Origin: Pseudotevenvirus miller
Taxonomy: Duplodnaviria; Heunggongvirae; Uroviricota; Caudoviricetes; Straboviridae
IMG/VR virus record: IMGVR_UViG_2706796139_000001
Location: 50,895 to 114,894 of that record
Length of the DNA stretch: 64,000 nt
Reading direction: 5' to 3' (one strand)
Shown: positions 1,769 to 51,006 of the stretch, piece after piece
How positions within the stretch are numbered: position 1 is the first letter of the stretch
Layout: every line of letters starts with the position of its first letter
Translations under genes and position numbers: made by a program
The notes under the pieces: model-generated
Databases searched by the model: none
Seen by the model: only the letters and a program-made list of their open reading frames with translations
Told to the model about the DNA's origin: nothing

Positions 1769-2335
1769 ATGCGCTATTTAAAATACGCAAGCTGGATCTT
1801 ACTGGTTCCGGTAGACATTATCACAGGTGTTCTTGCTATCCTGTTAGCCCCCTTTGTGGTTCCGTTCTATGATGAAAAAGTAGGACATCTGCCTAAAGGG
1901 TTCCGATGGATGGAAACCTATGATAACCCGATTGATGGTGACGGTGGACACATCGAACGCTGGAAAGATATTCGCAAATGGGGCGCTGTCGGTGTCTATG
2001 CTCAACGTGTGGCGTGGCTATGGCGTAACAAGGCGTATAACTTCGCGTATCATGTGCTGGGGCGTGAGTCTATATCACACACCTACTGGAAAGGAAACAA
2101 ACTGGTAGACAGCAGTTCAAGCGATCCTAAACATCATGGCTTCCTGGTGATGTGGAACGAATCTGCGTGGGGTGTATTCGGTTTCGTGCCGTGGCTACGT
2201 ATCCATAACATTCAATTCTGTCTGCGTGTCTATTGCGGGTGGAAACTGAAATCGGAAGTAAACAACCCAGACAATAAAGACCGTGTGATGCTGGCATTCC
2301 ACATCAACCCGTTCCGGTTCTATAAAATCAAGTAA
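1769..2335 (+). CDS. hypothetical protein, hydrophobic N-terminus (about 189 aa)
   Basis: Starts at M of MRYLKYASWILLVPVDIITGVLAILLAPFVV. The listed 1529..2335 ORF is an upstream read-through in the same frame. Confidence 0.5.
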   Translation: MRYLKYASWILLVPVDIITGVLAILLAPFVVPFYDEKVGHLPKGFRWMETYDNPIDGDGGHIERWKDIRKWGAVGVYAQRVAWLWRNKAYNFAYHVLGRESISHTYWKGNKLVDSSSSDPKHHGFLVMWNESAWGVFGFVPWLRIHNIQFCLRVYCGWKLKSEVNNPDNKDRVMLAFHINPFRFYKIK

Positions 2336-2344
2336 AGGTAATAT

Positions 2345-2707
2345 ATGAAAGCGTATCAAATTTTAGAAGGTTTACATACTGGTACTATCTATCTGGAAGA
2401 AGGAAACGATGTTCGGATCGTAGTATCAAAAACTCTCGAAATGGATTCAGTGATCGGAAAAGCTCGCGTTGTACCATTCGCAAAACGTGAAGTTGATATT
2501 GAGTTTCAACCGACTGTTAAAGTTGAAGGTGGACAGCACCTAAACGTGAATGTGCTACGTCGCGAAACCCTGGAAGATGCTGTGAAACATCCTGAGAAGT
2601 ACCCACAGTTAACGATCCGCGTTTCAGGTTATGCAGTTCGCTTTAATGCACTGACTCCAGAACAACAGCGCGACGTTATCGCCAGAACCTTTACGGAAAG
2701 CATGTAA
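2345..2707 (+). CDS. grcA: autonomous glycyl radical cofactor (GrcA/YfiD-like; T4 Y06I-like)
   Basis: The C-terminus [29 protein letters not shown] is the glycyl-radical motif of PflB/GrcA (RVSGY). Confidence 0.85.
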
Positions 2708-2988
2708 TGTCTATTGAAGATATCAAGGGGTATAAACCCCATACTGATGAAAAAATTACGATCGTGAATCGTATCAAAGCAGCAGAAAATGAACTGGGTG
2801 CTATCCTGGATGATCTTGATAAACGATATTCAGGTGATTACGCCTGTTCAGATCTGGAATCACACACAGAAAAAGAACTTGATGAAATGCTCGAACGTAC
2901 ACATCAAATTCAATTGGCAAAAGACCGACTGAAAGAAGCCTCTATGTGGGCGTGTCGTGCGGTGTTCCAGCCAGAAGAAAACTATTAA
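2707..2988 (+). CDS. hypothetical protein (93 aa)
   Basis: ORF translationally coupled to the grcA-like gene (ATGTAATG overlap). Confidence 0.5.
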   Translation: MSIEDIKGYKPHTDEKITIVNRIKAAENELGAILDDLDKRYSGDYACSDLESHTEKELDEMLERTHQIQLAKDRLKEASMWACRAVFQPEENY

Positions 2989-2994
2989 AATCAA

Positions 2995-3024
2995 GCCGTT
3001 GCCGAAAGGTGACGGCTTTTTTCG
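2995..3024 (+). terminator. rho-independent terminator
   Basis: agccgttgccGAAAggtgacggct hairpin followed by a T-run. Confidence 0.5.
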
Positions 3025-3113
3025 TTTATATCGAAAATAATGCTTGCGTTGAATCCGGCTTTCTTGTATCTTTAACCACGTAGGCAAGACAACTTAACTT
3101 TGAGGATGACATT

Positions 3114-3404
3114 ATGAAAACTTACAACATGAAAGACCTGGTTTGCTTCAAAACTCGTCGTGAAGCCCGTGCGTATGTTCTGGCGGCTGGTAAAAATACC
3201 TCTGCTGTAATCGACCTGGGTACTGATAAAGAGGTTGGTGCTCGTTGGGCCGCTGTTGTGGTTATCGCTGTCCCTGTTACCCCTGCTAAAACTCTGGTTC
3301 TGGGTGCTCGCAATAGCGAAACTTTGAACACCAGCACTTGCAATAACAGAGGCGTTCATAGTGTCAAAGTGTTCAAACGTCGCAGCATTGGTGCGAGGGC
3401 TTAA
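3114..3404 (+). CDS. hypothetical protein (96 aa)
   Basis: ORF with GAGG RBS. Ala/Val-rich. No recognised domain. Confidence 0.4.
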   Translation: MKTYNMKDLVCFKTRREARAYVLAAGKNTSAVIDLGTDKEVGARWAAVVVIAVPVTPAKTLVLGARNSETLNTSTCNNRGVHSVKVFKRRSIGARA

Positions 3405-3613
3405 TGATGGTAAATTTCAAAGCAGGTGATCTTATTTCACCAAAGAACCGAGAATGCATTAAAGAGTTCCCATATTGGGAAAATCTGGAGATTGTATCTT
3501 TCTGCTCTGATTTGTGTGAAGCGGTAGTACGTCAAAAGGATGGTTGGATGTGTAATCATTTTAACCTCGACCCAGAATTTGGTGAAGAGTTCGAAGTTGT
3601 TGGGAGTGTATGA
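3404..3613 (+). CDS. hypothetical protein (69 aa), Cys-containing
   Basis: ORF in a tight early-gene array. Confidence 0.35.
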   Translation: MMVNFKAGDLISPKNRECIKEFPYWENLEIVSFCSDLCEAVVRQKDGWMCNHFNLDPEFGEEFEVVGSV

Positions 3614-3615
3614 AA

Positions 3616-3821
3616 TGAGCAAAACCAAAGAATTAGAACAGAAAGTATTGGGGTTCATGAGTAACAGCGAAGATCGCTATGCGAAACACCTCATTGTTGA
3701 ACTGATCACCGAGTTACGCCGCCGTGACAAAGAGATTAAAGATCTGAAAGATGAAAAGCGTGTGGTTCGCGAGGTTGTTGTAGAACCAGTTGAATACAAC
3801 TTTGGCCCTGGTGGTGCATGA
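3616..3821 (+). CDS. hypothetical protein (68 aa)
   Basis: Starts MSKTKELEQK. The listed 3540..3821 ORF is an upstream extension. Confidence 0.4.
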
Positions 3822-4048
3822 TGCGATATGGTAAAAAAGACTATGTTCTTATAGTCGGTCAGCAATACGTAAAGCGTGATTTCTTCGGTGAACTGTTCCT
3901 TTCGAACAATCCTGAATTGATGTACTCATTCGAAACGGAAGAAGACGCGTATATTGCTAAGAACAACAGCAGAAATGCAGATATTCGTAACTTTGCTCGC
4001 GTATACGAGCGCAACACTTTAATAACTTACGAGGCATGTGATCAATGA
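3818..4048 (+). CDS. hypothetical protein (76 aa)
   Basis: ATGA overlap with the upstream gene. Confidence 0.4.
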   Translation: MMRYGKKDYVLIVGQQYVKRDFFGELFLSNNPELMYSFETEEDAYIAKNNSRNADIRNFARVYERNTLITYEACDQ

Positions 4049-4212
4049 AAAAATTTATCAACGCAGCATTACAAGAAATCTTCGACGCGCTGGAAGCCTG
4101 GAAGACACGCACAGACGTTTCTATCACTTCGGCATCCAATGGTACTACATACGACCGTTACGATCCTTCTCGTGGCTTACACAAGCCGTATGAGACTAAG
4201 GAATCAAAATGA
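4045..4212 (+). CDS. small hypothetical protein (55 aa)
   Basis: ATGA-coupled small ORF, not in the ORF track because it is under 60 aa. Confidence 0.3.
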   Translation: MKKFINAALQEIFDALEAWKTRTDVSITSASNGTTYDRYDPSRGLHKPYETKESK

Positions 4213-4361
4213 AGTATTACGGGTTTAAAACAAGTCATTACGGTAAAGCGTACCGCACTGACAACATCGATCGCAAACGTCCGTATTACGATTCTCTGGT
4301 ACGTGCAGGTCGTAAACGTGCTCGCCAGGAAGGGAAGAAGGAAGGAGAAGACCGTGGTTGA
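4209..4361 (+). CDS. small basic hypothetical protein (50 aa)
   Basis: ATGA-coupled ORF MKYYGFKTSHYGKAYRTDNIDRKRPYYDSLVRAGRKRARQEGKKEGEDRG. Confidence 0.3.
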   Translation: MKYYGFKTSHYGKAYRTDNIDRKRPYYDSLVRAGRKRARQEGKKEGEDRG

Positions 4362-4493
4362 TAATTCAGATCTGAATGAAGCACTTCGTTCTATTACTGC
4401 GAATACTAAACCGAAAAAGAGAACAGGAGAAATCATCTTTTTATGTGTATGGTATTTTGTGTTTAGCTTTGTTGTTGGCGCTGCATTTGCGAA

Positions 4494-4946
4494 ATGGTTC
4501 TTATAATGGATATCGGATCAGGTAGTCAATACCCATCATGCGCATTGAGCAACTTTGCTCCGCATCCGTTTACATTTGACGGGGTAGAATGTGCATCGAT
4601 GGAGGGCTTTTTACAAAGTCTGAAATTTAGCAATCCAGATATGCAAGCACATGTGTGTACTCTGGTCGGTAAGGCTGCAAAGTTCAAAGGCAAAAAGAAA
4701 AAATGGTGGACAACCCAAACCCTGTATTGGAAGGGTATTCCGATCCATCGTGAATCAGAAGCCTATCAGATCCTTATCGAAAACGCGTACAATGCGTTGT
4801 TCCTGAATGAAGGGTTTCGCCGTGCGTTGAAAGCAACCGGAAAAAGTACCTTGACTCATTCAATGGGAAAGAATAAGATGAATGAAACGGTGCTCACTGA
4901 ACGTGAGTTTGTGCGAAATTTAACCCGACTAAGGGATCTGCTATGA
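4494..4946 (+). CDS. NADAR / YbiA-like (DUF1768) domain protein
   Basis: SNFAPHPF...DG...S.E..FQ..KF pattern typical of the NADAR fold, 150 aa. Confidence 0.7.
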   Translation: MVLIMDIGSGSQYPSCALSNFAPHPFTFDGVECASMEGFLQSLKFSNPDMQAHVCTLVGKAAKFKGKKKKWWTTQTLYWKGIPIHRESEAYQILIENAYNALFLNEGFRRALKATGKSTLTHSMGKNKMNETVLTEREFVRNLTRLRDLL

Positions 4947-5161
4947 TTGGTTATTCAGTAGTTCAGATGTCTAACGGGAAATGGCGACTGTTTTATTATT
5001 TTCGTTGGTTTCCGTGGTATAAATGGACTCCGACCTTTGGTGATGGTTGCGGGAACGATACGGGTATTCCGGTTGAATACAAACAAAAGATTGATGTTAT
5101 TGATTGGCATCTTAAGAACGAACAATTAAAAGAAAGGTTGAAATTATTACAATGCTTATGA
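4943..5161 (+). CDS. hypothetical protein (72 aa), Trp-rich
   Basis: ATGA-coupled ORF. Confidence 0.35.
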   Translation: MIGYSVVQMSNGKWRLFYYFRWFPWYKWTPTFGDGCGNDTGIPVEYKQKIDVIDWHLKNEQLKERLKLLQCL

Positions 5162-5364
5162 TTTATTTCGCAATCGTAGTTGGTGTCTTGATATACCTTG
5201 CTATTGGTGTATACTGTGCAGCACGGTTTTCCTGGTGTTTTGGTGTAAGTCATAACGGCTACCATACATTCTGGGGTACTGTGTTACAATATACCATTTT
5301 CCCGTTGATTGTGTTGTTTTGGCCTTTCTTCGCGTTGTGGTTCATCTTTGCATTATTTGTCTGA
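5152..5364 (+). CDS. small membrane protein (70 aa)
   Basis: Two predicted TM helices (IYFAIVVGVLIYLAIGVY...FPLIVLFWPFFALWFIFALF). Confidence 0.4.
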   Translation: MLMIYFAIVVGVLIYLAIGVYCAARFSWCFGVSHNGYHTFWGTVLQYTIFPLIVLFWPFFALWFIFALFV

Positions 5365-5370
5365 GGTTAT

Positions 5371-5638
5371 TATGAGTGAAAATGAAAGAGTAGAATGCGC
5401 GTTCCTGTTCAAAGGCGCGATCAACCCATTGGCATTACTCCACGCACAAGGTGCATTGAGTTCTACAATAATCATGAGTGTTATCTACAAAGCTGGTGTG
5501 TATTACGTTACGATCGGCGCAAACAATATGCGCGTGATGGAAAGCTACGTTGAAAAATGCGGACACAGAGGTATTGTATTTAACCGTATTGATATGGATA
5601 TTCCACCATACGACGCAATTTATATGTACAGGGGTTGA
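5371..5638 (+). CDS. hypothetical protein (89 aa)
   Basis: Starts MSENERVECAF. The listed 5309 ORF is an upstream extension. Confidence 0.4.
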
Positions 5639-5862
5639 TGATGGAATATTGGATTTATTTTGATTGCTCTGACCTCGATCCTGGGGTGTTGAGTCTTGCA
5701 GCAGCATATCACCAGACTATAACGGGGATCTCCGTGACTAACGATGATATGCTGTGTATTGAGTTTTCTGGGTATCGTCGATTTGAACGTGATATGTTCC
5801 TTGCATATTTGAACGCGCACAAATCAGATGTGTTCTACGATCGTTATGAGGTTAAATCTTGA
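5635..5862 (+). CDS. hypothetical protein (75 aa)
   Basis: ATGA-coupled ORF. Confidence 0.4.
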   Translation: MMMEYWIYFDCSDLDPGVLSLAAAYHQTITGISVTNDDMLCIEFSGYRRFERDMFLAYLNAHKSDVFYDRYEVKS

Positions 5863-6476
5863 AACCAGTTATTCTTACCGATATTGACGGGATCGCCGTA
5901 AAATGGCAAAGCGGCCTCCCGTTCTTTTTGTCTAAACACAATATGCCTACTGATATTGCTCTGGACATGGTCACCGATGAAAGATTTCGTGATATGACCG
6001 AAATATTCGGGTGTGATCACCAACTGGCTAAAATCCTGATGGAAGAATATAACAACAGTTCGTTTATTCGCTATCTAAGCGCGTATGACGATGCGTTAGT
6101 TGTGATCAACCGTCTGAAAGCCAAATATGATTTCGTCGCTGTCACGGCGCTGGGAACCACTCCTACGGCAAGTCTGAACCGTATTGCAAACCTGAACACA
6201 TTGTTCCCGTCTGCATTCAAAGAAGTGATGGTCGTCGGACATGGTGAAACAAAAACACATCGTTACCTGGAAGCAAAAGCCAAATACGGATCGCGGTTGG
6301 TTTGCTTTGTTGATGACCTTGCGGTAAACTTAAACGAGTGTCATAACGTTATCAGTCAGTTGCCGTTATTTCACATGTTGCGTGGTGAACGTGAACAACC
6401 AAATGTTCCGCACAGTATCGTAAAATCATGGTTTGAAATTGAAGAGAAATTAGATGATCTTATCAATATTGAATGA
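5859..6476 (+). CDS. HAD-superfamily phosphatase, 5'(3')-deoxyribonucleotidase-like
   Basis: N-terminal ILTDIDGI (DxDx[TV] motif I), a later conserved K and a (F)VDD motif. 205 aa. Confidence 0.6.
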   Translation: MKPVILTDIDGIAVKWQSGLPFFLSKHNMPTDIALDMVTDERFRDMTEIFGCDHQLAKILMEEYNNSSFIRYLSAYDDALVVINRLKAKYDFVAVTALGTTPTASLNRIANLNTLFPSAFKEVMVVGHGETKTHRYLEAKAKYGSRLVCFVDDLAVNLNECHNVISQLPLFHMLRGEREQPNVPHSIVKSWFEIEEKLDDLINIE

Positions 6477-7977
6477 ACTTGCATCGACTCTGAAAACCTC
6501 AGAGAAGGAAGCAATTTTAAAACGTAATGCAAACAACCTATTGTTGAAAGAGATTTTCCGAATTACGTACACAAAACAGATTATGTTCTATGTGCGTAAA
6601 TTTCCCCAAATCCTGTACAATGATATGAACCCTCGCGATCTTGCGTGGGCTGTTGATGCTCTGGGTGTATTGTCTCGACGTGAAAAGACGGGCAACGATG
6701 CGAAAGAATATCTTCGTCGGGTTGTATCATCAGTAAACGAGAACGATCGCGAAGTGTTGCGCCGTATCATTAACCGCGATCTTGAATGTGGTGCGGGTAC
6801 AACTCTGCCAAACCGCGTATGGAAGAAACTTATTCCAGAACAGCCTCAATGCCTCGCTACGCCGTTTAGTGAAAAAGCCTTAAAACGTATTCGCTTCCCT
6901 GCTTACTCTCAGCTTAAAGCCGATGGTGCGCGTTGTATGTCGGATCTGTTAGAAGACCAGATTCGCAAAGCAACCCGCGCGGGAAATGAGTATACAGGTT
7001 TGGTTGATCTGGATAAGGACTTGAAAAAGATCCGCGAATATCTGGGTTATGATGTTGTGCTGGATGGAGAATTGATTTATGTCCCTACTGAAAAAGCTGT
7101 TATCGAACCTGCAAGCGGGATTCCTTTTAGTCTTGCTGGGTTTATGGATGATGACGACGATGATATTTCTGGTCTTGTGGCAGATGTTCGACGGGAAACT
7201 ACCGAGAACGAAACACTGGAAGAAGCGAAACGCGAAGAGGGCAACGGGATTGTAAACAAATCCCTGAAAGGCACTATTAGCGACGAAGAACAGCGCAACA
7301 TTGTATATGTTGTCTGGGACATCATACCGTATGAAGTTTATTATGGCGATGCTCCGAGTGTTCAACCGTATTGCGATCGTTTGTCTATCCTGGATGGTGC
7401 TCTGGCTGGTTCTGGGGTATCGTGTGTTAAGTTAATCCCTTCTCGCGTTGTGTATAACATTGCAGAAGCAAAACTGGATTACAACAACTATCGAAATGAC
7501 GGTAAAGAGGGTTCTATCCTGAAAAATACCGATTTCGTCTGGAAGGATTCACGCGTTGCTGATCAGGTTAAGTTGAAGAACAAAACCCCGATTGAACTAC
7601 GGATCATCGACGTATACGCACATACCAAAGAACCCCATAAAGTCGGGGGTTTTGTGGTTGAAGACTTATCAGGTGAAGCCAGGACAAACACAGGTTCCGG
7701 TCTGACTGATACAGACTACCGCTATGATGAAGATGGTATTACGCGTGTGTATATCCCGTTAGAAGAACGCGGAGAACTGGATCGCGAGTACATCATGGCG
7801 AACAAAGATGACTATATCGGCGCTATCGTCGAAATGGAAGTTGACGGACTCCAGAAGTCTAAGACGCGTAAGAAAGGGGAACCTGAATACAGTTTCTTCT
7901 TGCCAATCATCAAAAAGATTCGACGCGATAAGACGGAACCTGATGATATTCATGTGGTTTTTGCTGATCTGTTTTAA
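6454..7977 (+). CDS. 30: ATP-dependent DNA ligase (T4 gp30)
   Basis: Strong similarity to the T4 ligase, with N-terminal MILSILNELAS and the KADGARC adenylation motif. 507 aa, with an acidic insertion (FMDDDDDDISG). Confidence 0.95.
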   Translation: MILSILNELASTLKTSEKEAILKRNANNLLLKEIFRITYTKQIMFYVRKFPQILYNDMNPRDLAWAVDALGVLSRREKTGNDAKEYLRRVVSSVNENDREVLRRIINRDLECGAGTTLPNRVWKKLIPEQPQCLATPFSEKALKRIRFPAYSQLKADGARCMSDLLEDQIRKATRAGNEYTGLVDLDKDLKKIREYLGYDVVLDGELIYVPTEKAVIEPASGIPFSLAGFMDDDDDDISGLVADVRRETTENETLEEAKREEGNGIVNKSLKGTISDEEQRNIVYVVWDIIPYEVYYGDAPSVQPYCDRLSILDGALAGSGVSCVKLIPSRVVYNIAEAKLDYNNYRNDGKEGSILKNTDFVWKDSRVADQVKLKNKTPIELRIIDVYAHTKEPHKVGGFVVEDLSGEARTNTGSGLTDTDYRYDEDGITRVYIPLEERGELDREYIMANKDDYIGAIVEMEVDGLQKSKTRKKGEPEYSFFLPIIKKIRRDKTEPDDIHVVFADLF

Positions 7978-7993
7978 ATAGCACTTTTTGTTT

Positions 7994-8071
7994 AAAAAGC
8001 CCCTTGCGTAAGTGAGGGGCTTTTGTTATTGTACACACATCGAAACGAAACAGACAAAAGGAACTACGAAA
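7994..8071 (+). promoter_or_regulatory. PeSL-like cassette: terminator hairpin carrying a -35 (TTGCGT), a -10 (TATTGT) and a conserved leader
   Basis: aaaaagccccTTGCGTaagtgaggggcttttgtTATTGTacacacatcgaaacgaaacagacaaaaggaac...ATG. Unit repeated 10 or more times in the window. Confidence 0.55.
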
Positions 8072-8326
8072 ATGGCTAGAACAATCAAAGATTTCCACGA
8101 TGACCAGATTATTTCTCATGTGATGAATGGTCGTATGATTCTGGTTCAGGATGGTGAAGATACCACTCTGATTGTCGAAAACGTAGTTCACTACAGCAAC
8201 AGCAGTTTAGAAGGCATGTTCAAATGGTTGTTGCGCCAGCACAAAGCAGAGAAAAGCAGTCTCCCAGCACAGTGCAAAGCCCACGCAAAAAACCTGGTTG
8301 TCGTTACTAAAATGAGAATGCGTTAA
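8072..8326 (+). CDS. hypothetical protein (84 aa)
   Basis: ATG 8072 downstream of the conserved leader. The listed 8012 ORF is an upstream extension through the promoter. Confidence 0.5.
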   Translation: MARTIKDFHDDQIISHVMNGRMILVQDGEDTTLIVENVVHYSNSSLEGMFKWLLRQHKAEKSSLPAQCKAHAKNLVVVTKMRMR

Positions 8327-8418
8327 AAATTGCCCCTTCGGGGGCAAATAATAGTTGCATTAAATCCTGGTTGTGATACATTACACACATCGAAACGAAA
8401 CAGAGAAAGGAACATACC
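8326..8418 (+). promoter_or_regulatory. PeSL-like cassette (hairpin, early promoter, conserved leader)
   Basis: ttgccccttcgggggcaa hairpin, then ...cattacacacatcgaaacgaaacagagaaaggaacataccATG. Confidence 0.5.
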
Positions 8419-8688
8419 ATGAACATCGATAAAGAACTCGAAGGAAAAGTAATCAACCTGGCAGACCGTGCGCGTTTTGAAAAGCTGGCTAATGGTGGTG
8501 AATCTCTGGGTGATGCAGTAGCATTATTCGAAAGACTTCGTGTTAAACGTGTTGTAGATGGCTGGGTTATTGCTCTCCCTGTCGCAGATGAAGACAAAGC
8601 GGTATATGACCCAGTTGCCGATTCATGGGATATCGCAATCTGTCTGGTTAACATTGAAGTAGAACTTTGCTTCGAGGAAGAAAAATAA
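8419..8688 (+). CDS. hypothetical protein (89 aa)
   Basis: ORF behind a PeSL leader. Confidence 0.5.
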   Translation: MNIDKELEGKVINLADRARFEKLANGGESLGDAVALFERLRVKRVVDGWVIALPVADEDKAVYDPVADSWDIAICLVNIEVELCFEEEK

Positions 8689-8692
8689 TTGA

Positions 8693-8759
8693 TTAAACCC
8701 CTTGCACATCGCGAGGGGTTTTGATACAGTACACACATCGAAACGAAAGGAGAAACATC
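8693..8759 (+). promoter_or_regulatory. PeSL-like cassette
   Basis: aaaccccTTGCACatcgcgaggggttttgatacagtacacacatcgaaacgaaaggagaaacatcATG. Confidence 0.5.
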
Positions 8760-9083
8760 ATGAAAGTTATGCACACTGCGAATCAACTTCAAAACGGCAA
8801 CTACGCGATCCACGATGCTATCGGTGCGCTGGTTGGGGTTTATCTTCCTGGTAGCAAATACCTCGAAGTTAGTGGGAATACCTTTACTGATGTTGAAAAC
8901 ATCGAAGCAGCAATGGAAATCATCGGTGAAGATCCGAATCTTCGTTGGTGTTGTGCGAAAACTGGTTTTGATGCTGCATGGGGTGCTACTCCAGAACAGG
9001 CGCGAGAAAACTGGGAACATCAGCAAATGTTCTTTGCGCATAAAACCCCATTCAATTATGACGGGAGTCACATAGCAGCATGA
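8760..9083 (+). CDS. hypothetical protein (about 107 aa)
   Basis: Starts MKVMHTANQLQNG behind a PeSL leader. Confidence 0.5.
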   Translation: MKVMHTANQLQNGNYAIHDAIGALVGVYLPGSKYLEVSGNTFTDVENIEAAMEIIGEDPNLRWCCAKTGFDAAWGATPEQARENWEHQQMFFAHKTPFNYDGSHIAA

Positions 9084-9388
9084 AAGAGCTAAATCTATCA
9101 AAAGAAGAAGTTGAAAAGCGGATTACCGAAGGACTTGAAGTTATCAAGTCTATCGACTGGGGAAAGGTGATTGATTCAATGCCTGATATCCCTGATACGA
9201 TTTGCCTTAATTGTGGGCGATCCGTAATGGTTGGAAAGTGCTGTGATAATCAGAATATCGTTATCATGGACAGGAAAGAAGTTTCACCGGAAGTGTGGGA
9301 TCAGATTCAAGAAATCATCAAAAACCCACCGGAACCGACGAAACGTTTACGCGAACTTATGAGCAGGACACCACGTTATGAAAAATGA
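9080..9388 (+). CDS. hypothetical protein (102 aa) with CxxC...CC motif
   Basis: ATGA-coupled ORF containing ICLNCGRSVMVGKCCDN. Confidence 0.5.
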   Translation: MKELNLSKEEVEKRITEGLEVIKSIDWGKVIDSMPDIPDTICLNCGRSVMVGKCCDNQNIVIMDRKEVSPEVWDQIQEIIKNPPEPTKRLRELMSRTPRYEK

Positions 9389-9755
9389 ACCAAGTAAGAC
9401 TGTGCGCCTTATCCGTTGGGAAGGTAACGAACTCCGTTATGAAGACGGCGATCGTGAATTCGTTCATGAAATGCTGGCGCACAATCTGGGATTGAAAAAC
9501 GCTAACCTTGTGCAGATGCAGCAGACAGCAGATCCCGACACATGGCAATGCGTCATTGTTGAACTGAACCCTAACAAGGAATACACAGAAGATGAACTCT
9601 TTGTGCTTGTTCAGGACGTTCCAGCGCGTCAGAAATGCTTTATGATCGACATGCCACGGGAAAACTATGAGAACATCAAGAAAGCCCGTCAGAAGCCCAT
9701 ACACAACGTATTTGATTTGTTTATGGGCTATCATGAGGAACCGGAAACGGCCTAA
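9378..9755 (+). CDS. hypothetical protein (125 aa)
   Basis: Overlaps the upstream gene's stop. No recognised domain. Confidence 0.5.
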   Translation: MKNEPSKTVRLIRWEGNELRYEDGDREFVHEMLAHNLGLKNANLVQMQQTADPDTWQCVIVELNPNKEYTEDELFVLVQDVPARQKCFMIDMPRENYENIKKARQKPIHNVFDLFMGYHEEPETA

Positions 9756-10855
9756 GCCTCGCTTGTTTTGCTGTCGTCGTTAGTCGATGCCGCCACCTGT
9801 ACACATTCTAATGTTTGCAGGTGGAAATCTTTTGATACGTCACGAATACATTCAACAATAAGATACTTACCCGCATATTCATCACCCAATACTTCAATTA
9901 ATGCCCCCACTTTTACATCCATTCGACCTTGATTAATATCAAACTTAATCCGTTTTTCATAGCTGGACAGCAACTGACATTTAACCGCCTGGAATGGCTG
10001 GCCTTGTTTGTCTGGGTTCTGAAAGTTGGTATCATATACCGCGTTTCGGTTCATGGTGATCCACGCGTTCTCTATGTCTGTACTTGCGAGGATATCGCTA
10101 TACAGCTTTTTATCTGTCATTGAGAAGCTAAAGAAACTTGCATCACCTAATAATGTGGTGTTATCCTTATACGTAATGTATTCCGCTTTCGTGAATACCA
10201 AAGAATCACCTAAAAACGGGTTGCTGACGTTATACTTGTAAGCCTTGATCGGGGTTTGTGCGAGGATCTCCGTATTGCTTTTCATAAAGATACCGGAACC
10301 ATCTTCCCACAAATAACAGAAGTCGGACGAATCAACACTCTGACCGTTATCCCTGATGTAATCAAAAACGGTTTCATACGTCCCGCTAAGACATGCAGGA
10401 GGTATACGCACGTTTGATGCGTCTATGGTTGGCGTGATTAGTTTCTTATCATTGTATAGTGCCGTCATGCACTCTGTAATCGTCTGTACGGCGTTATTAC
10501 TGAACGAACGGGAAAACTTACGACGAAACACCGTATGCACCGGAGAAAGGTTTAGGCGCAATATAGAACGGTTCATATCATCCGTTTCTACGTTCGAATA
10601 CAACACACCATAGTAATGCTGTTCTAACGTCTGATTATACTGGAAGGATACCTGTATGATCGGTTTCTCTGTCAACTGATAGATTAACTGATTATCATAG
10701 ATCTGCATCAATGTTTCGGAAGTTCCATTGATTATGGTCTTCTCACTCATTGAGACAAGGGCAGGTAACAATTCAAGATAGACGTTATCAGCAAACTTTT
10801 CATATGTTGGATATAATTTAACCGATACGACGCGGTTTATAACTTTATTGGACAT
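9752..10855 (-). CDS. 27: baseplate hub protein gp27-like
   Basis: 367 aa. The N-terminus ...VSVKLYPTYEKFADNVYLEL resembles my recollection of the T4 gp27 N-terminus (recalled, not checked). Divergently transcribed from gp28 and gp29. Confidence 0.5.
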   Translation of the reverse strand: MSNKVINRVVSVKLYPTYEKFADNVYLELLPALVSMSEKTIINGTSETLMQIYDNQLIYQLTEKPIIQVSFQYNQTLEQHYYGVLYSNVETDDMNRSILRLNLSPVHTVFRRKFSRSFSNNAVQTITECMTALYNDKKLITPTIDASNVRIPPACLSGTYETVFDYIRDNGQSVDSSDFCYLWEDGSGIFMKSNTEILAQTPIKAYKYNVSNPFLGDSLVFTKAEYITYKDNTTLLGDASFFSFSMTDKKLYSDILASTDIENAWITMNRNAVYDTNFQNPDKQGQPFQAVKCQLLSSYEKRIKFDINQGRMDVKVGALIEVLGDEYAGKYLIVECIRDVSKDFHLQTLECVQVAASTNDDSKTSEA

Positions 10856-19034: not shown

Positions 19035-19502
19035 TTATCCGTCATAACCGCCACCGCACTTAACCTCACCTTCAATGAACAGTTCGCGGTTGTCTCTCAA
19101 AAGATTGTATTTCTTTTCGAGTTCCGGCCCGAATGCGTCAGCGTCTTCATAATAGCTATAATTATAACAACCGCATTCATCATCCCATTCAGGTTCATCA
19201 CCGCGTTCGTTGAAGTGTACGACTTTGAGATCGTCAACTCCAGACTCTTTCATTTTATCCCAGATATACCGGATGTCAACGCTATGGTAACTGAATGCTT
19301 CAAGGGTGATGTTATCACCATCGATTTGAGGGATACCCCATTTAGGACGTTGGTCATCGGTGATGATATCAAGCAAAGATTCTACGTTTTCGTGTCCGTA
19401 AATCTTCGCGACCTCTTCCTCTTTACCAGGACGAACAAGCCCGATCCCGATAATAAAGCTACTGCTTGAACTGTTACTTACAAAACCAGAACGGATCTTC
19501 AT
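19035..19502 (-). CDS. hypothetical acidic Cys-containing protein, paralog A with N-terminus MKIRSGFVSNSSSSSF
   Basis: 155 aa. The first 16 aa are identical to the 22913..23425 product, but encoded with different synonymous codons. Confidence 0.55.
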   Translation of the reverse strand: MKIRSGFVSNSSSSSFIIGIGLVRPGKEEEVAKIYGHENVESLLDIITDDQRPKWGIPQIDGDNITLEAFSYHSVDIRYIWDKMKESGVDDLKVVHFNERGDEPEWDDECGCYNYSYYEDADAFGPELEKKYNLLRDNRELFIEGEVKCGGGYDG

Positions 19503-19690
19503 CGTCTTGCCTCATATTTCGCGTTCTCAGCGATTTTTTCTTGATATATGTTATATGACATTACCAGAGGCGCAACCGCCACGATAAGCCCTATAAAGCA
19601 CACAGAGAACTCACGTTTATTGAAAGCCAGGAACGCAATTGCGCTCCCGACCACGAACACACCCAGTGCCAGTAAGAAGAATAACGTCAT
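19499..19690 (-). CDS. small membrane protein (63 aa)
   Basis: Two hydrophobic helices. Confidence 0.4.
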   Translation of the reverse strand: MTLFFLLALGVFVVGSAIAFLAFNKREFSVCFIGLIVAVAPLVMSYNIYQEKIAENAKYEARR

Positions 19691-20304
19691 TTCGGCAACG
19701 TGTCCATTTTGCGTGATTTTTCCAACAGGGTTTTGATTACCGTATCCATCGCCTGTTCTGTATCACCATCATGATAGATGATCGCGGTTTGATGCAAACC
19801 TTTCACCAGACGATTGATAATGTACGCCATTTCGGTCGGTAACAGTTTACCCGTTTTGTTGAATTTTTCAAACAGATTGAACAGTTCTTCGTTATTCCCT
19901 TTCTTACGGAAATTGAAGTTGTGCATCCCAGACAGAAGACTATCCAGATACAGAACTGTTTTGTTATCAGAGCGGAGGTGTCCACCGATTTTGTAGTAGT
20001 TGCTGAAAACGTATGGTGCTTCACGAACATCATCGATGTCGAAACCAGCATCATCGATATTGCCTACGTGGGAGAAGAAATCCGCATCGTTATCGAACAG
20101 ATTGATCGCGCCTTTCTTGTATGGGAATCCAGCCAGGTTAATGACTCCCTTTTCATACGCATCATCGTTATCAACGACAACGTATTCAGGAAGCATAGGG
20201 GCATATGGTTTGTTTTTGTCGTGGTTTTCGCGATACGCTAAAGGTTCAGCCAGATAGAGGATATCGCCTTGTTTGACTTCATCCCAAAAGATATTACGTG
20301 ACAT
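19687..20304 (-). CDS. hypothetical protein (about 205 aa) downstream of the vWA gene
   Basis: Starts MSRNIFWDEVKQGD with a GAGG RBS and an upstream gcccccTTTCgggggc hairpin. The listed 261 aa ORF is an extension into the vWA gene. Confidence 0.5.
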   Translation of the reverse strand: MSRNIFWDEVKQGDILYLAEPLAYRENHDKNKPYAPMLPEYVVVDNDDAYEKGVINLAGFPYKKGAINLFDNDADFFSHVGNIDDAGFDIDDVREAPYVFSNYYKIGGHLRSDNKTVLYLDSLLSGMHNFNFRKKGNNEELFNLFEKFNKTGKLLPTEMAYIINRLVKGLHQTAIIYHDGDTEQAMDTVIKTLLEKSRKMDTLPK

Positions 20305-20344
20305 ATTAAATTCCTCAACATGCCCCCTTTCGGGGGCTATATCA

Positions 20345-22564
20345 TTACAGTTTAACTTCTTTTTCTTCCAGGACGATTTCGCAATCGAATGTTGCACCTT
20401 CCCAGAACTTATGCGGGATAATGTCAGTCGCTTTAACCGATACTTTGGTTTCTTCGAAATCCATATCCGCAAACCATGCGTGGCCTACAACGATACCGTA
20501 CATTACACGGCTCAGGCGCTTGTTCAGTGCGCGTACTTCGTTGATGGTTGCCTTTGTTTCTTTATCAAGGTACTCGATTACCTTATCCTTGTCAAGCGCT
20601 GCGAGTTCAGCTTTAACAGCATCGTAAGCCCACAGGATGATCAGGTCGCCGTTGTTCAGTTTCTTCTTACCTTCGGCACGTTTCGCAACGGTTGCCGCTA
20701 CAGCAGGAAGGGAGGAAACACCCTTGATTTTCAGATTCAGTTCTTTCGACATATAAACATCAGTCGAATCGGTACGGGTTACTTTCGGGGAGAATCCATA
20801 ATCACGAATACCCTGTTCAGATAACCATTCACCAGCGGCTTCACCGTATTTCTGTTTCAGACCTTCGGCATTACGTAAACCGATCGCATCGTCACGGAAG
20901 AACTTCATCACCTTCTGGCGACCTTTCAGGATTTCCAGACGGATAGAGTCGTTTACATACTCTTTACCGGAGATCCCGCGAGTCATCGCACGGTTAACCA
21001 GAGGCAGACTTGTAAAGTCAACCAGAACCGACATACGGTCTTCACCGATTTTTGCCAGCGGCTTGATGGTCAAACCAGAAGCGCGGAGGTTTTTCAGTGT
21101 CGGAATATCAGTTTCCAGAGGCAGAACCTTAACGTTTACGATACCGTCTTTAACGATGGTAAAGTTACGCACCTGCTTAGTTTCGATCTGTTCAGGCAGT
21201 CCGAATTCTTTCTGCTTACTTTCTGGGATAGTTACGTAACCAGCCAGATCCGTGTTAATGGAAATGTTCGGACGTGAACTGTTACCGACCAGATGCTTAA
21301 CCGATACTTTGGTTGTAGTCTGGGTAAATTTCGGTGTCCAGATTTCGTGCGTTACCATTTGCGCGGCTAATGCTTTGCGTTCTTCCGGTGTTTTCGCATT
21401 TGCGATCTGTTCTGACAGTTGATCCAGAGTATCATCTTCTTTCTGTACTGTCTGACGGCCTGTACGGTTGTACGCCCAGTGTTCAGAAGACAGGTCGATC
21501 ACTGTGTCAGTTTCTGCCAACAGTTCGAGAGCATCAACCAGAGTGAATGCGTTTTCGTCTGGAACCATGTTGTAATCAACACCCTCAATCAGACGTTTAC
21601 CCGCATCAACTACCGCTTCCGCGATCAGGTCTTTGGCGTTGGAATAATCCTGCTTAGTAAAGCAGTTATCGTATGCCTTAATCAGACGAACGTCACCGAC
21701 TTTTTTCAGCACTTTCCATGCCAGATCAGGGTTCATGGTGTGCAGTGCATGATACAGCACCACGTACAGAACCTGTTCACCTTCCATCGTAGCCGGATCG
21801 AATCCGTCGATGTCGTTGATTGCGTTTTCACCCAGCGCCCAGATGTTTTTGATATGCTCAGGAACCAGCACAACACCGTTTGCAGCGTTAAGGACATACA
21901 CGCGCCCTTCGTCAATGTAGATCGCATGGGTAGCATCACCTACTTTAACTTCAACACGCGCTGATGTTTGAGCGGTAATGATTTCAGCAAATGCTGGCTC
22001 GTATGCGTCGAAACCTTCAACGAATTTATGCAATGCGTTGGTTGCTTCTGCCATTTTTTCCAGCAGAGGACGGTTAACATAGTAACCATATTCCAGGAAC
22101 GCAATGCTGTTAAACGTCAGCGGGAGAACCGCACACGCTTTCAGGATGTCATCGGTACGCCAGCAGTTATCATAACCATCCGTCAGGAAGATCAGGCTGT
22201 TCAGGTTTCCGTTTTCGGATTGCAGGTCAGTTGCAATCTCAGCAGCCAGATTCAGAGGTTCGACGAAACCAGTACAACCAGTAGGTTTCAGATAACGGTC
22301 GATCGCGGTGCAGATATTGGTCAGATCCGATACGTTGCTAACCTTCTCACCACGGAACACAGTACCGTAATCGCCTTTGCTGGAGAAGTACAGGATCGAA
22401 ACAGTATCATCCTGTTTAACCAGGCTTGCCAGATTCGCTTTCAGGTGCTTACGAATTTTCGGCAATTCACTGTACATTGAACCGGAAACGTCGCAAACGA
22501 AAACGTGGTTGGTCGGAGTCGGTTTAGATACTGCATTTTTGAATTCGATATTTGTAATTGACAT
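20345..22564 (-). CDS. von Willebrand factor A (vWA) domain protein, 739 aa
   Basis: N-terminal MIDAS motif VFVCDVSGSMYS ... LFLTDGYDN. The long C-terminal region has no recognisable domain. Not Alt-like or RIIA-like. Confidence 0.8.
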   Translation of the reverse strand: MSITNIEFKNAVSKPTPTNHVFVCDVSGSMYSELPKIRKHLKANLASLVKQDDTVSILYFSSKGDYGTVFRGEKVSNVSDLTNICTAIDRYLKPTGCTGFVEPLNLAAEIATDLQSENGNLNSLIFLTDGYDNCWRTDDILKACAVLPLTFNSIAFLEYGYYVNRPLLEKMAEATNALHKFVEGFDAYEPAFAEIITAQTSARVEVKVGDATHAIYIDEGRVYVLNAANGVVLVPEHIKNIWALGENAINDIDGFDPATMEGEQVLYVVLYHALHTMNPDLAWKVLKKVGDVRLIKAYDNCFTKQDYSNAKDLIAEAVVDAGKRLIEGVDYNMVPDENAFTLVDALELLAETDTVIDLSSEHWAYNRTGRQTVQKEDDTLDQLSEQIANAKTPEERKALAAQMVTHEIWTPKFTQTTTKVSVKHLVGNSSRPNISINTDLAGYVTIPESKQKEFGLPEQIETKQVRNFTIVKDGIVNVKVLPLETDIPTLKNLRASGLTIKPLAKIGEDRMSVLVDFTSLPLVNRAMTRGISGKEYVNDSIRLEILKGRQKVMKFFRDDAIGLRNAEGLKQKYGEAAGEWLSEQGIRDYGFSPKVTRTDSTDVYMSKELNLKIKGVSSLPAVAATVAKRAEGKKKLNNGDLIILWAYDAVKAELAALDKDKVIEYLDKETKATINEVRALNKRLSRVMYGIVVGHAWFADMDFEETKVSVKATDIIPHKFWEGATFDCEIVLEEKEVKL

Positions 22565-22574
22565 TTAAATTTTC

Positions 22575-22913
22575 TCAGTATTTGGTTGTTTTATGTGCGT
22601 TTAAAATGCTTTGGATTTTTTCGGAAATCGTTTGCTGGTCTGGTTCACATTCCAACTTACCGCCAATCGCCTTATAAAAATCTTCAACAGAGTTTACGTT
22701 AAAATCCTGCATATTGAAACCTAAAGAGTACATGTGTGGATTTTTGAATTCGTAAACATCTACATCATACTCGTTAAGGTCGAAACGTTCAATATATTTC
22801 TTCAAAGAAAATAAATCGAACGGTAGCGGGAGGTGCTGTTCAATCGTTACAGGTTCCCCCAGCTTATGCGCTTTTAGTGTTGCCGCTTTCGTATACGTCA
22901 TTTCTTCTTTCAT
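22575..22913 (-). CDS. hypothetical protein (112 aa)
   Basis: ORF between paralog B and the vWA gene. Confidence 0.45.
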   Translation of the reverse strand: MKEEMTYTKAATLKAHKLGEPVTIEQHLPLPFDLFSLKKYIERFDLNEYDVDVYEFKNPHMYSLGFNMQDFNVNSVEDFYKAIGGKLECEPDQQTISEKIQSILNAHKTTKY

Positions 22914-23425
22914 CAGTGGTGACTCTTTGATGTATGTTCAAGGTTGCGGAAAATGTTACCATGTTCCAGTTGGGTTCCGATAGGACCGCATTCATCGGAG
23001 TATGTGAACTCGTAGATAAACACGCCGCCCTGGTTCCCGTACTTCATGTTGTATTCTTCATACAACCACATCTTGATCAGAGCGTCTTTCTCTTCGGTTT
23101 CTAAATCGTACCAATCCCGACCATCATATGCAAGCGCAATTTTAGGATTTGAACGATAACGGGTTTCGGCGCTGTCTTCGGTTTCCCAATCATAACGCTT
23201 ATCATCATAAAACGATTCAAAGCTGTTACCCATATGACCGCCCAAATCACGGTGTACATGGTTGACCACTTCTTCGGATGTCAGCGACGGGGTATAGTAA
23301 CCGCACGTAGGATGACAGTCACCCATCATTTCGCGGAGGTTGTCGATATCAGTCGGATCTTTCGGGAACCGGACAATGAAACTACTTGATGAACTATTGC
23401 TAACAAAACCAGAACGAATTTTCAT
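22913..23425 (-). CDS. hypothetical acidic Cys-containing protein, paralog B with N-terminus MKIRSGFVSNSSSSSF
   Basis: 170 aa. N-terminal 16 aa identical to paralog A. Confidence 0.55.
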   Translation of the reverse strand: MKIRSGFVSNSSSSSFIVRFPKDPTDIDNLREMMGDCHPTCGYYTPSLTSEEVVNHVHRDLGGHMGNSFESFYDDKRYDWETEDSAETRYRSNPKIALAYDGRDWYDLETEEKDALIKMWLYEEYNMKYGNQGGVFIYEFTYSDECGPIGTQLEHGNIFRNLEHTSKSHH

Positions 23426-24741: not shown

Positions 24742-24996
24742 TTAAAAAAGATGCGTTAAATGCCCTGCATTGCTGGGATATTCTACGTAATCACCACGGA
24801 AGATGTTCAAATCTTTGTCAAATTTAAACCCTTGACCTTGAACATCTTCATGGCGCGACACATAAGAAACTCCATATTTTTCAAGGTCTTCCATATACAT
24901 TTCAGTGATTCTCTTCGCCTTATCCATCCCGCGCCCCTCGAATCGAGAACGTCGATAATGTGTAAGAAGAAACGCGTATAATTTTTCGTATGTCAT
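24742..24996 (-). CDS. hypothetical protein (84 aa)
   Basis: ORF. Confidence 0.4.
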   Translation of the reverse strand: MTYEKLYAFLLTHYRRSRFEGRGMDKAKRITEMYMEDLEKYGVSYVSRHEDVQGQGFKFDKDLNIFRGDYVEYPSNAGHLTHLF

Positions 24997-25904
24997 TTCA
25001 ACACCTTTCTGATTTGTTTTGCTATCGCTTCGATCACCGGAACCGATACAGAGTTACCAGCTTGTTTGTATGCCTGTTTCTTGCTTGTGGGGATCTGGAA
25101 TGTATCGGGGAATCCCTGCAAGCGAAAACATTCACGCGGGGTTAATCGTCGTGGGTTCTTCCCGTCCTGCAACACCAGACACTGAACACCATCCTTATAA
25201 TATTGCGCTGTGATGGTTCCTGTGTGCGTAGAATCGCTTGTGACGGCCTGATAACCAAACCCCTTACCATTCGCCTTGTTTCGTTCCTTACGCTCTCTAA
25301 AGCCTTTCCATGCGTTATCTGATAGGGTGTATGAATCATCAGCATCTTCGAGGATGTCGCCCACTCTCGTAGGGGTACGCGGGGGAACCGGAAACGAAAA
25401 GAATACATCTTCCAGGAAACAAACAATAAACACACGTTCACGTCGCTGGGGCAATCCGAAATCTTTTGTATTCAGTCGTTGATAGAATACGTTGTATCCT
25501 TCGGCCTCCAGAAGCCCGTAAATCGTTTTAAACGTCTTTCCCTTGTCATGGGTTAGTAGTTCAGGCACGTTCTCAAAGAACAGCACACGGGGCTTTTTAG
25601 CGCGTATGATGCGGAGTATTTCGAAGAACACCGTACCGCGAACATCATCGAACCCCAGTTTTAATCCTGCTTTACTGAATGCCTGACACGGGAACCCAGC
25701 CAACAGGATATCGTGATCAGGTACTTTGTTTTCGTCGATAGCGAACAAGTCACCTTCGAGATTATCACCGCCCCAGTTAGCGGCATATGTTTGTTGCGCG
25801 TATTTGTCAATCTCAGCAGTCAACGCACATTCAATACCATTGAACGCACGATCGAAGCCCAGACGAACACCGCCCACGCCAGCGCATAAATCAATTACTT
25901 TCAT
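24993..25904 (-). CDS. DNA (cytosine-5)-methyltransferase (Dcm-like)
   Basis: All canonical C5-MTase motifs present: I DLCAGVGG, IV GFPCQAFS, VI ENV, VIII QRRERVFIV, X GNSVSVPV. 303 aa. Confidence 0.9.
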   Translation of the reverse strand: MKVIDLCAGVGGVRLGFDRAFNGIECALTAEIDKYAQQTYAANWGGDNLEGDLFAIDENKVPDHDILLAGFPCQAFSKAGLKLGFDDVRGTVFFEILRIIRAKKPRVLFFENVPELLTHDKGKTFKTIYGLLEAEGYNVFYQRLNTKDFGLPQRRERVFIVCFLEDVFFSFPVPPRTPTRVGDILEDADDSYTLSDNAWKGFRERKERNKANGKGFGYQAVTSDSTHTGTITAQYYKDGVQCLVLQDGKNPRRLTPRECFRLQGFPDTFQIPTSKKQAYKQAGNSVSVPVIEAIAKQIRKVLK

Positions 25905-42405: not shown

Positions 42406-42698
42406 AAGTGACTAATCTCAGCAGATTTCATTTTCATCTGGATAGCCTGAACAGCAAGGTCGCGCTGTTCTTCGGTTTCGTATCCAGCCCACGTTACAGA
42501 ATCTTTATGAACGAAGTGAAACACAATAGCAGGTTTCCACACGTTACCAGGACACGGAACAGTAGCATCAGTTTGTATCCAAGAAACGTGGTCTGTGTTT
42601 ACCGGATAATTGGTACATTCAACACTACCACTATCAACAAACATTGTATGCGGTGCGTACAAACGTGTATATTTTTTGATTCTGGATATAATCAACAT
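42402..42698 (-). CDS. hypothetical protein (98 aa)
   Basis: ORF immediately downstream of the radical SAM gene. Confidence 0.4.
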   Translation of the reverse strand: MLIISRIKKYTRLYAPHTMFVDSGSVECTNYPVNTDHVSWIQTDATVPCPGNVWKPAIVFHFVHKDSVTWAGYETEEQRDLAVQAIQMKMKSAEISHL

Positions 42699-50539: not shown

Positions 50540-51006
50540 GCTTTGACATATTCCACTTTAACAGGTTTGGCGATAAGGTGATCTTTGGTGTAACCTTGTC
50601 CGTCGCAAACATCACAAACGATTTTGAAATCTTCCATTTGGTCGACCCATCCAGAATCAGGCAATCCAGAAGGGTACGTGTTGAAGGTTTTAACACTGTA
50701 TCCTTTTCCATCACACTTAGGGCATTTATACGGGTATTTCGATTTGATCGCACTATACAATTGACCCAGTGTGGTCGAATGATCAAAGTGTATAACAAGT
50801 GCTTCAACGTCAGCAATGCGCAATTCGTTTGGCTTGATCACAGTAAACACATTTGAAGGTATGTTTGGACGCATAATATATTTCTCACTTAAAGAATTTT
50901 TTGATGAAAGAGAGGAACAATCCACCGCCGAACATGATCCAGTATCCCGCGCCGTCACCGTGAAACAGGACGTAAACCGCGACACCATAACAAAAGATTT
51001 CTGCAA
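50536..51006 (-). CDS. protein with two DnaJ-type CxxCxGxG zinc-finger motifs
   Basis: CPKCDGKGY and CDVCDGQGY. Start uncertain. Confidence 0.4.
   Translation of the reverse strand: MQKSFVMVSRFTSCFTVTARDTGSCSAVDCSSLSSKNSLSEKYIMRPNIPSNVFTVIKPNELRIADVEALVIHFDHSTTLGQLYSAIKSKYPYKCPKCDGKGYSVKTFNTYPSGLPDSGWVDQMEDFKIVCDVCDGQGYTKDHLIAKPVKVEYVKA

Follow-up and report, generated by a model that had tools for sequence, protein, structure and literature searches.

A stretch of 64,000 nucleotides from the phage Pseudotevenvirus miller (positions 50,895 to 114,894 of IMG/VR record IMGVR_UViG_2706796139_000001), the whole of which is hereafter called the window, encodes two proteins, orf155 and orf170, that begin with the same serine-rich sequence and diverge thereafter. 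This 16-residue N-terminal tag was found on a very large family of phage proteins, and the only gene that recurs next to the genes of that family codes for a radical S-adenosylmethionine (radical-SAM) enzyme with a SPASM/twitch-type auxiliary Fe-S domain, which is also present in the window. We propose, with moderate confidence, that this phage enzyme is a maturase and that the tag is where it recognises and modifies its substrates. A single radical-SAM/SPASM enzyme would dock on the tag and alter many different phage proteins after translation, an activity that we infer from gene linkage, co-occurrence and conservation of the tag. More tentatively, as a possibility that we would not yet call probable, many large phages may possess an undescribed protein-tagging system in which a single radical-SAM/twitch enzyme modifies the 16-residue tag of up to 14 hypervariable acidic effectors per genome, encoded by tandemly amplified genes. 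The modification would be radical-derived, for instance a formylglycine aldehyde or a cross-link within the tag protein, and the system would be a counterpart of the biosynthesis of ribosomal modified peptides at the scale of proteins, employed in the arms race between phages and their hosts.

The first-pass annotation of the window had described orf155 and orf170 as a paralog pair sharing exactly 16 N-terminal residues encoded by different codons. Both ORFs (open reading frames) are present on the minus strand at the positions given; a Shine-Dalgarno-like sequence precedes each of them, and in phage Miller both are annotated as coding sequences with ribosome-binding sites. The exact identity was borne out, but the stretch that is actually shared is one residue longer, i.e. 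17 residues (MKIRSGFVSNSSSSSFI). As annotated, the codons differ: eight of the 16 tag codons are not the same in the two genes (K2, I3, V8, S9, N10, S13, S15 and F16), all differences being synonymous, and for Ser13 one gene uses AGC and the other TCA, such that all three bases differ. The first 51 nt agree at 41 positions, with no exact DNA match longer than 14 nt (CGTTCTGGTTTTGT), and the sequences upstream of the two genes could not be aligned; the long identical DNA that the annotation had named as a sign of recent recombination was therefore not found. The divergence of the remainder of the two proteins was also confirmed: BLASTP aligned residues 1-18 and nothing beyond, and a profile-profile comparison of the orf155 and orf170 families covered residues 1-25 only. 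Within the orf155 family alignment the tag stays invariant down to 30% overall identity, and orf170 matches the phrog_7397 profile along positions 1-170 of 170 (E 9e-118). In the window itself, a degenerate DNA pattern for the first eight residues matched exactly twice, at the two tag genes, and never in 100 shuffled sequences; a hidden Markov model (HMM) of the tag, applied to the six-frame translation, scored 39.6 and 38.9 bits on the two tag ORFs versus a maximum of 6.9 bits elsewhere.

The two proteins do not form an isolated pair but belong to a phage family of very large size. When IMG/VR was scanned for the motif GFVSNSSS, 465 stretches matched, 77 of which were fetched and combined with four earlier ones (about 12 kb each; hereafter motif-chosen loci). 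The linkage statistics are based on the best 80 loci per scan. The motif-chosen loci contained 318 motif-bearing ORFs, with up to 10 tandem copies per ~12-kb locus, encoding proteins of 42-322 aa (median 138), and in 293 of the 318 the glycine of the motif is residue 6. The tag consensus, M-K-[IVT]-R-x-G-F-[VI]-S-N-S-S-S-[ST]-S-F, is followed by a hydrophobic strand; K2 and R4, which lie outside the search pattern, are each kept in 256 of 257 tag sequences. When the N-terminal profile was run as an exhaustive HMM search against 1.84 billion proteins, 24,660 clusters (50% identity) were matched at E<=1e-3, a count that depends on the use of a short profile at this threshold, and 1,503 clusters were matched at E<=1e-10. 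Unlike the exhaustive search, a word-index protein search with the tag profile gave short fragments only. The first-pass annotation had suggested looking for the tag N-terminus in other T4-like phages, and it does occur on a T4-like contig (L004), where an orf170-like and an orf155-like gene are separated by one small gene, and far more widely in viral contigs; on another contig (L002) three adjoining genes share the tag N-terminus and have quite different bodies. In 185,579 species genomes, the motif was found at 18 loci only, almost all on contigs of metagenome-assembled genomes (MAGs) and one on a phage-sized contig; the arrays hold up to 14 tag genes, often along with the radical-SAM enzyme. 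The tag family is thus essentially restricted to phages.

Conservation of the tag acts at the level of the protein. Across the fetched loci the 16-mer is encoded by 335 distinct 48-nt sequences, its third-position identity is 0.50 as against an amino-acid identity of 0.90, and at fixed positions all six serine codons and all six arginine codons are in use. These data uphold two earlier statements, namely that the tag is under purifying selection as a peptide and that the pair in the window, with its synonymous codon differences, did not arise by recent duplication or recombination.

The link with the radical-SAM enzyme emerged from both directions. Clustering of the other ORFs in the motif-chosen loci singled out just one recurrent neighbour, the radical-SAM gene, which about 43 of about 79 loci contain. 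Reciprocally, in a set of 79 loci picked by the enzyme alone and extending 10 kb to each side, tag ORFs were found in 63 loci using the pattern and in 67 using the HMM. These ORFs (259 and 293, respectively) all lie on the strand of the enzyme gene, mostly 1-9 kb downstream of it, while the next most frequent neighbour family occurred in 9 of 72 loci. Seven of the 12 enzyme-chosen loci that lacked a tag belong to the RB43/RB16/KP15 group, in which the tag genes are located about 20 kb downstream on the same strand; the arrangement is the same in the window, where the enzyme gene lies about 19-20 kb upstream of the tag genes. Moreover, among 50,697 cultured-phage records the enzyme was detected in 174, orf155 in 174 and the DNA of the region in 177, with near-identical counts per genus. 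Enzyme identity between contigs falls to about 40% and no other neighbour is conserved, so that common descent by itself can hardly account for the adjacency, which points to a functional link.

The enzyme of the window shares 57-64% identity (tblastn) with the copies embedded in the tag arrays of contigs L004 and L014; it belongs to phrog_7293, and GenBank labels the enzyme 'radical SAM protein'. The array enzyme is about 350 aa long and contains the sequence ...DIEISTxC...CxFCYKSN.... Pfam detected the SPASM domain (PF13186, E 1e-5) and, on a homologue, Radical_SAM (PF04055). Seven cysteines are fully invariant among 60 diverse copies: C71/C79/C82, the radical-SAM triad, which is spaced CX3CX2C in most copies and CX7CX2C in the window enzyme, and C263/C288/C306/C358, which point to one fully ligated auxiliary cluster. 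NCBIfam models of radical-SAM/SPASM maturases of peptides and proteins and of twitch proteins gave partial, sub-threshold matches, the best being TIGR04317 with 28-34 bits against a cut-off of 380, and the best PDB match by sequence was to the twitch domain of the dehydrogenase BtrN, a marginal hit (about 40 residues, E 1.7e-4). Six phages each of Prevotella and Microcystis and a single Vibrio phage encode remoter relatives of the enzyme, and in several Klebsiella phages the radical-SAM gene is adjoined by homing-endonuclease or GIY-YIG genes.

In contrast to the tag, which has an amino-acid identity of 0.90, the bodies that follow it are extremely diverse. With the motif removed, those of the motif-chosen loci fell into 89 BLASTP clusters, 62 of which were singletons. 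No Pfam domain was found in 87 body cluster representatives and no Pfam family among the top 142 matches to the N-terminal profile; likewise, Pfam and NCBIfam scans of orf155, orf170 and distant homologues gave no match, and searching the PDB by sequence with orf170 or with the tag profile gave chance-level matches only. The UniRef name 'YubB ferredoxin-like domain-containing protein', attached to a 90%-identical copy of orf170 in Flagellimonas marina, was not reproduced by a Pfam scan. The phrog_7397 profile was also matched by all 142 of the top N-terminal-profile proteins, over their N-terminal region where residue ranges were given, and by 54 of the 87 body representatives. The bodies are acidic, with a median isoelectric point (pI) of 4.6, and 73% of them have a pI below 5 versus 22% of the other ORFs in the same loci. 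About one quarter are Cys-rich. A common class is rich in Cys and His right after the tag (F-x-C-x-V-C-G-E..S-G-x-D-M..A-E-M-x-E-C-x-N-G-H-x-x-C-x-x-H, with a later CPxC; for example at L002 5384-5881, L076 5404-5994 and L027 6875-7387), and this segment looks like a zinc-binding module. Bodies that are unrelated in sequence, from L005 to L081, nevertheless show recurrent C-terminal endings (..GAGRNG, ..GGGYDG, ..AWRDG, ..GGY, ..SHH and ..GTRxC), which hints that the C-terminus of the tag proteins may matter too, perhaps by lying near the tag in space.

Structures were predicted with AlphaFold2 (AF2) for monomers only. The orf155 model has a predicted local distance difference test (pLDDT) score of 85.6, with values below 50 for residues 1-11 and a strand at residues 13-23; in the orf170 model residues 1-4 and 6-10 are below 50. 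Both models place residues 13-20 in the core, where they make up the first strand of a beta-sheet. The body architectures that are predicted differ, including an alpha/beta sandwich, a mainly helical form and a Cys-rich, zinc-ribbon-like form. The orf155 model matched no fold in the PDB or BFVD. Three homologues of orf155 (PQ657829, PQ657830 and PP889458) are annotated as 'head-tail adaptor', apparently through a sequence match to phrog_132; fold searches with orf155 gave no match to solved adaptor proteins and the gene context gives no backing either, and we treat the label as a probable annotation carry-over, i.e. a likely mis-annotation that propagates.

Radical-SAM enzymes of the SPASM/twitch type are known above all for maturing peptides and proteins (anSME, PqqE, AlbA, MftC and many enzymes of RiPPs, peptides that are synthesized ribosomally and modified post-translationally), and the usual genomic hallmark of a maturase with its substrates is one enzyme gene beside a varying number of genes that have only a short invariant sequence in common. 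The tag would fit a segment that enters the active site of an enzyme, because it has a free terminus, is predicted with low AF2 confidence and is the most conserved part of the proteins. As to the chemistry, our leading guess, made with low confidence, is that a serine of the tag would be oxidised to a carbonyl (formylglycine), as anSME and BtrN do; such an alcohol-to-carbonyl oxidation is favoured by the serine run, the single fully Cys-ligated auxiliary cluster and the weak similarity to BtrN. Alternatively, the enzyme could introduce a cyclophane-type or ether cross-link at Phe7-x-Ser9, or catalyse an epimerisation. The divergence and acidity of the bodies, their tandem amplification, the early-type gene context and the lack of a late-promoter consensus suggest that the tag proteins are host-takeover or anti-defence effectors.

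A number of observations weigh against a maturase acting on the tag. The linkage shows a functional connection without giving its direction, and in the window and the RB43 group the enzyme gene is not adjacent to the tag genes, being 19 kb away in the window. SPASM/twitch enzymes with small-molecule substrates exist (BtrN, MoaA, NirJ and AhbD), the phage enzyme reaches no curated cut-off of the characterised maturase families (anSME, PqqE, MftC, FxsB, StrB and others), and no RiPP recognition element (RRE) is recognisable in it. Radical-SAM enzymes are oxygen-sensitive, and the hosts of the cultured phages are facultative aerobes. Furthermore, conservation of the tag could be partly structural, as residues 13-20 are in a predicted core beta-strand, and the recurrent C-terminal endings (GAGRNG, AWRDG, GGY and SHH) hint at a shared core that sequence methods have missed.

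Such considerations lead to other explanations. The tag could be a short linear motif, or a beta-strand handle, that docks the proteins on a common hub, the enzyme being linked for some other reason; we regard this as unlikely. The hub might be a host protease, chaperone, ribosome or polymerase, or a phage assembly, and the enzyme might act on the hub or make its ligand. A tag that is portable, terminal and of low AF2 confidence is compatible with docking, and diverse bodies are to be expected of effectors that use one delivery or docking route; the gene linkage does not give a direction. However, no other recurrent gene is found near the arrays, such that a phage-encoded hub besides the enzyme is not visible; a host hub would need to be conserved across hosts that are probably very diverse; and docking leaves unexplained why the enzyme alone travels with the arrays. 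It is less probable again that the tag proteins constitute one extremely divergent superfamily with a small shared fold, in which the Ser-rich loop would be catalytic or would bind a ligand, e.g. a phosphate or nucleotide, and possibly a small molecule made by the radical-SAM enzyme. Active sites typically show invariance of this order, residues 13-20 are the first sheet strand in both AF2 models, unrelated-looking bodies share C-terminal endings, and in flavodoxin and NrdI phosphate is bound by Ser/Thr-rich loops that come after an N-terminal strand. Yet the predicted architectures are of different kinds (alpha/beta sandwich, mainly helical, Cys-rich zinc-ribbon-like), the profiles align over residues 1-25 only, residues 1-11, although invariant, are of low AF2 confidence and show no packing onto the body, and there is no fold match to any nucleotide-binding family.

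The first-pass annotation had compared the conserved N-terminus with the capsid-targeting sequence (CTS) of T4 internal proteins. Its proposal of a conserved N-terminal signal holds in that the tag is portable, occurring on at least 89 unrelated bodies and being of low AF2 confidence, whereas the analogy with capsid targeting is not supported. A CTS-like signal that delivers proteins into the prohead and is then removed by the prohead protease is very improbable. It can draw on the formal resemblance to a conserved leader on polymorphic proteins of T4-like phages, and on the PHROG-based 'head-tail adaptor' label of orf155 homologues in GenBank. The tag, though, is unlike MKTYQEFIAE, the T4-type leader of some 10 residues with a gp21 cleavage site at its end, and a gp21-type L/I-x-E site is absent from its conserved part: MKIRSGFVSNSSSSSFI contains no Glu, the first one being at residue 28 in orf155 and at residue 32 in orf170, outside the conserved part. 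Moreover, part of the tag is in a predicted core strand, and the bodies are acidic (median pI 4.6) whereas T4 internal proteins are basic and DNA-associated; the genes belong to early-type clusters of small genes with no late-promoter consensus nearby, no structural likeness to solved adaptors was found in fold searches, and the radical-SAM linkage would go unexplained. As for a DNA- or RNA-level element, or recent gene conversion between orf155 and orf170, only the identity itself speaks for it; eight synonymous codon differences, a longest run of 14 nt, unrelated flanks and 335 coding versions exclude it for practical purposes.

The features of the window are listed below. The DNA of the tag region is 100% identical to that of Citrobacter phage vB_CfrM_CfP1 (KX245890) and 95-99.8% identical to that of phages Miller, IME-CF2, RB16, RB43 and Lw1, which are T4-related myoviruses (Pseudotevenvirus). 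On the minus strand, the tag genes are part of a long succession of small genes, most of them unannotated, that follows the baseplate genes 48, 54, 51, 26 and 25, and no T4 late-promoter consensus was found near them. Between them lies an operon-like block on the same strand (19499-22913); as it does not separate the orthologues of the tag genes on the T4-like contig L004, it looks inserted into an older tag-gene array. The genes of the block are not recurrent neighbours of tag genes outside the RB43 group, and the protein with a von Willebrand factor A (VWA) domain was rejected as a partner of the tag because it is absent from related arrays outside that group. Just upstream of the tag block is a gene for a C-5 cytosine DNA methyltransferase (24993-25904, minus strand), so annotated in phage Miller.

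Features of the tag system and of the block between the tag genes (coordinates are those of the window)
Feature	Position	Strand	Basis or characteristics
orf155, tag-bearing, 155 aa	19035-19502	minus	ORF; family motifs GDEPEYD..YNY, C-terminal G.G(Y/R)(D/N)G-COOH
48 nt coding for the 16-residue tag of orf155	19455-19502	minus	degenerate pattern, HMM
63-aa membrane protein, between the tag genes	19499-19690	minus	context only
orf205, between the tag genes	19687-20304	minus	context only
739-aa protein with N-terminal VWA domain, phrog_2426, between the tag genes	20345-22564	minus	context only
orf112, between the tag genes	22575-22913	minus	context only
orf170, tag-bearing, 170 aa, phrog_7397	22913-23425	minus	family C-terminal signature YSDExG..LEHGNIFRN..SHH-COOH
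48 nt coding for the 16-residue tag MKIRSGFVSNSSSSSF of orf170	23378-23425	minus	degenerate pattern, HMM
Radical-SAM enzyme, 384 aa, SPASM/twitch-type auxiliary Fe-S domain	42698-43852	minus	tblastn, Pfam, Cys conservation

Some further observations concern individual tag arrays. The largest, on a contig (L167) of an uncultured gammaproteobacterial MAG, comprises 14 tag genes in about 8 kb (2215-10016), all on one strand; no radical-SAM gene was found within the 17 kb examined around it. The system is also flanked by mobile elements: on L002, LAGLIDADG-like genes and an IS605-type TnpB adjoin tag genes (174-2398 and 5954-6883). A tag gene with 93% identity is present on a 178,077-bp RB43-like contig in the assembly of a Flagellimonas marina isolate (L161; NZ_JBHSCL010000010.1), which is most likely a phage contamination. 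Finally, some database proteins (P0196-P0204) contain two complete tag units, each with its own Met; gene callers seem to have joined neighbouring genes there, perhaps because of stop-codon recoding in the phages concerned or of assembly errors.

A literature search retrieved no description of the motif or of a phage radical-SAM/SPASM system with tagged proteins, although its coverage was incomplete and an earlier description is possible. If the maturase hypothesis is correct, one principle, a common tag that is read by a dedicated radical-SAM enzyme, would cover tens of thousands of phage genes that now lack annotation (24,660 clusters without a Pfam or NCBIfam model), and radical-SAM/SPASM maturation, so far a matter of peptides and a small number of enzymes, would come to include an entire set of viral proteins. 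The tag would then identify many fast-evolving phage effectors that are probably directed at the host, its Ser-rich motif might reveal new radical chemistry, and the 16-mer together with its enzyme could become an orthogonal tool for protein modification. Cultured phages that carry the system include RB43, RB16, KP15, CfP1 and Miller, with E. coli, Klebsiella or Citrobacter as hosts.

Several known systems share features with the one described here. Like the tag proteins, the internal proteins of T4 (IPI, IPII, IPIII and Alt) are polymorphic, fast-evolving accessory proteins of T4-type phages with a short conserved N-terminal leader. The phage tag, however, has another sequence, precedes acidic bodies, reaches well beyond the T4-like phages and is linked to a radical-SAM gene. 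A likeness to class III type IV prepilin signals was considered and rejected: in the tag, K-I-R-x-G|F is followed by the polar V-S-N-S-S-S-S-S, with neither Glu at +5 nor the hydrophobic helix of about 20 residues that such signals have. Glycyl-radical enzymes (motif R-V-x-G-[YF]) also combine an invariant Gly-aromatic pair, with an Arg just upstream (I-R-x-G-F-V in the tag), and a co-encoded radical-SAM enzyme. Their PROSITE-type signature is [STIV]-x-R-[IVT]-[CSA]-G-Y-x-[GACV], and a glycyl-radical site in the tag is unlikely, as the Arg is at -2 instead of -3 and position -1 is not confined to Ser, Ala or Cys but varies freely (N, T, S, Q, I, K, H, D and others). Moreover, the Gly loop of glycyl-radical enzymes is C-terminal and buried in a 10-stranded barrel, whereas the tag is at a disordered N-terminus, and glycyl-radical activases are not SPASM/twitch proteins; the phage enzyme is not of the activase type.

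The sulfatase maturases anSME and AtsB are comparable in that their auxiliary cluster(s) are fully ligated by Cys and that they, as radical-SAM enzymes, modify a whole protein, without a leader, at a short Ser/Cys motif; the phage tag is serine-rich, and the best PDB sequence match of the phage enzyme is to the twitch domain of BtrN. In contrast to anSME substrates, the tag has no (C/S)-x-(P/A)-x-R motif of the sulfatase type, since no tag serine is followed by Pro or Ala at +2 or by Arg at +4, and the bodies are not sulfatase folds; in addition, anSME has two auxiliary clusters and the phage enzyme one. In RiPP-type SPASM systems (PqqE/PqqA, AlbA/subtilosin, MftC/MftA, SCIFF and the triceptide system 3-CyFE), as in the phages, an enzyme with a C-terminal auxiliary Fe-S domain is encoded beside genes on the same strand whose products share a short invariant sequence and otherwise differ, with one enzyme gene for many putative substrate genes; the same logic of one enzyme and many substrates is seen with ProcM and ProcA of the prochlorosins. 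The phage system differs from the RiPP-type systems in that the putative substrates are apparently folded proteins of 40-320 aa instead of short peptides, and in that the conserved element is 16 residues at the extreme N-terminus, which may be recognition and modification site at once. It also differs in having no RRE domain, protease or exporter, and in being phage-borne. Radical-SAM/SPASM maturases with cognate substrates are thus already known, whereas a phage-borne form that acts on many tagged whole proteins would be new.

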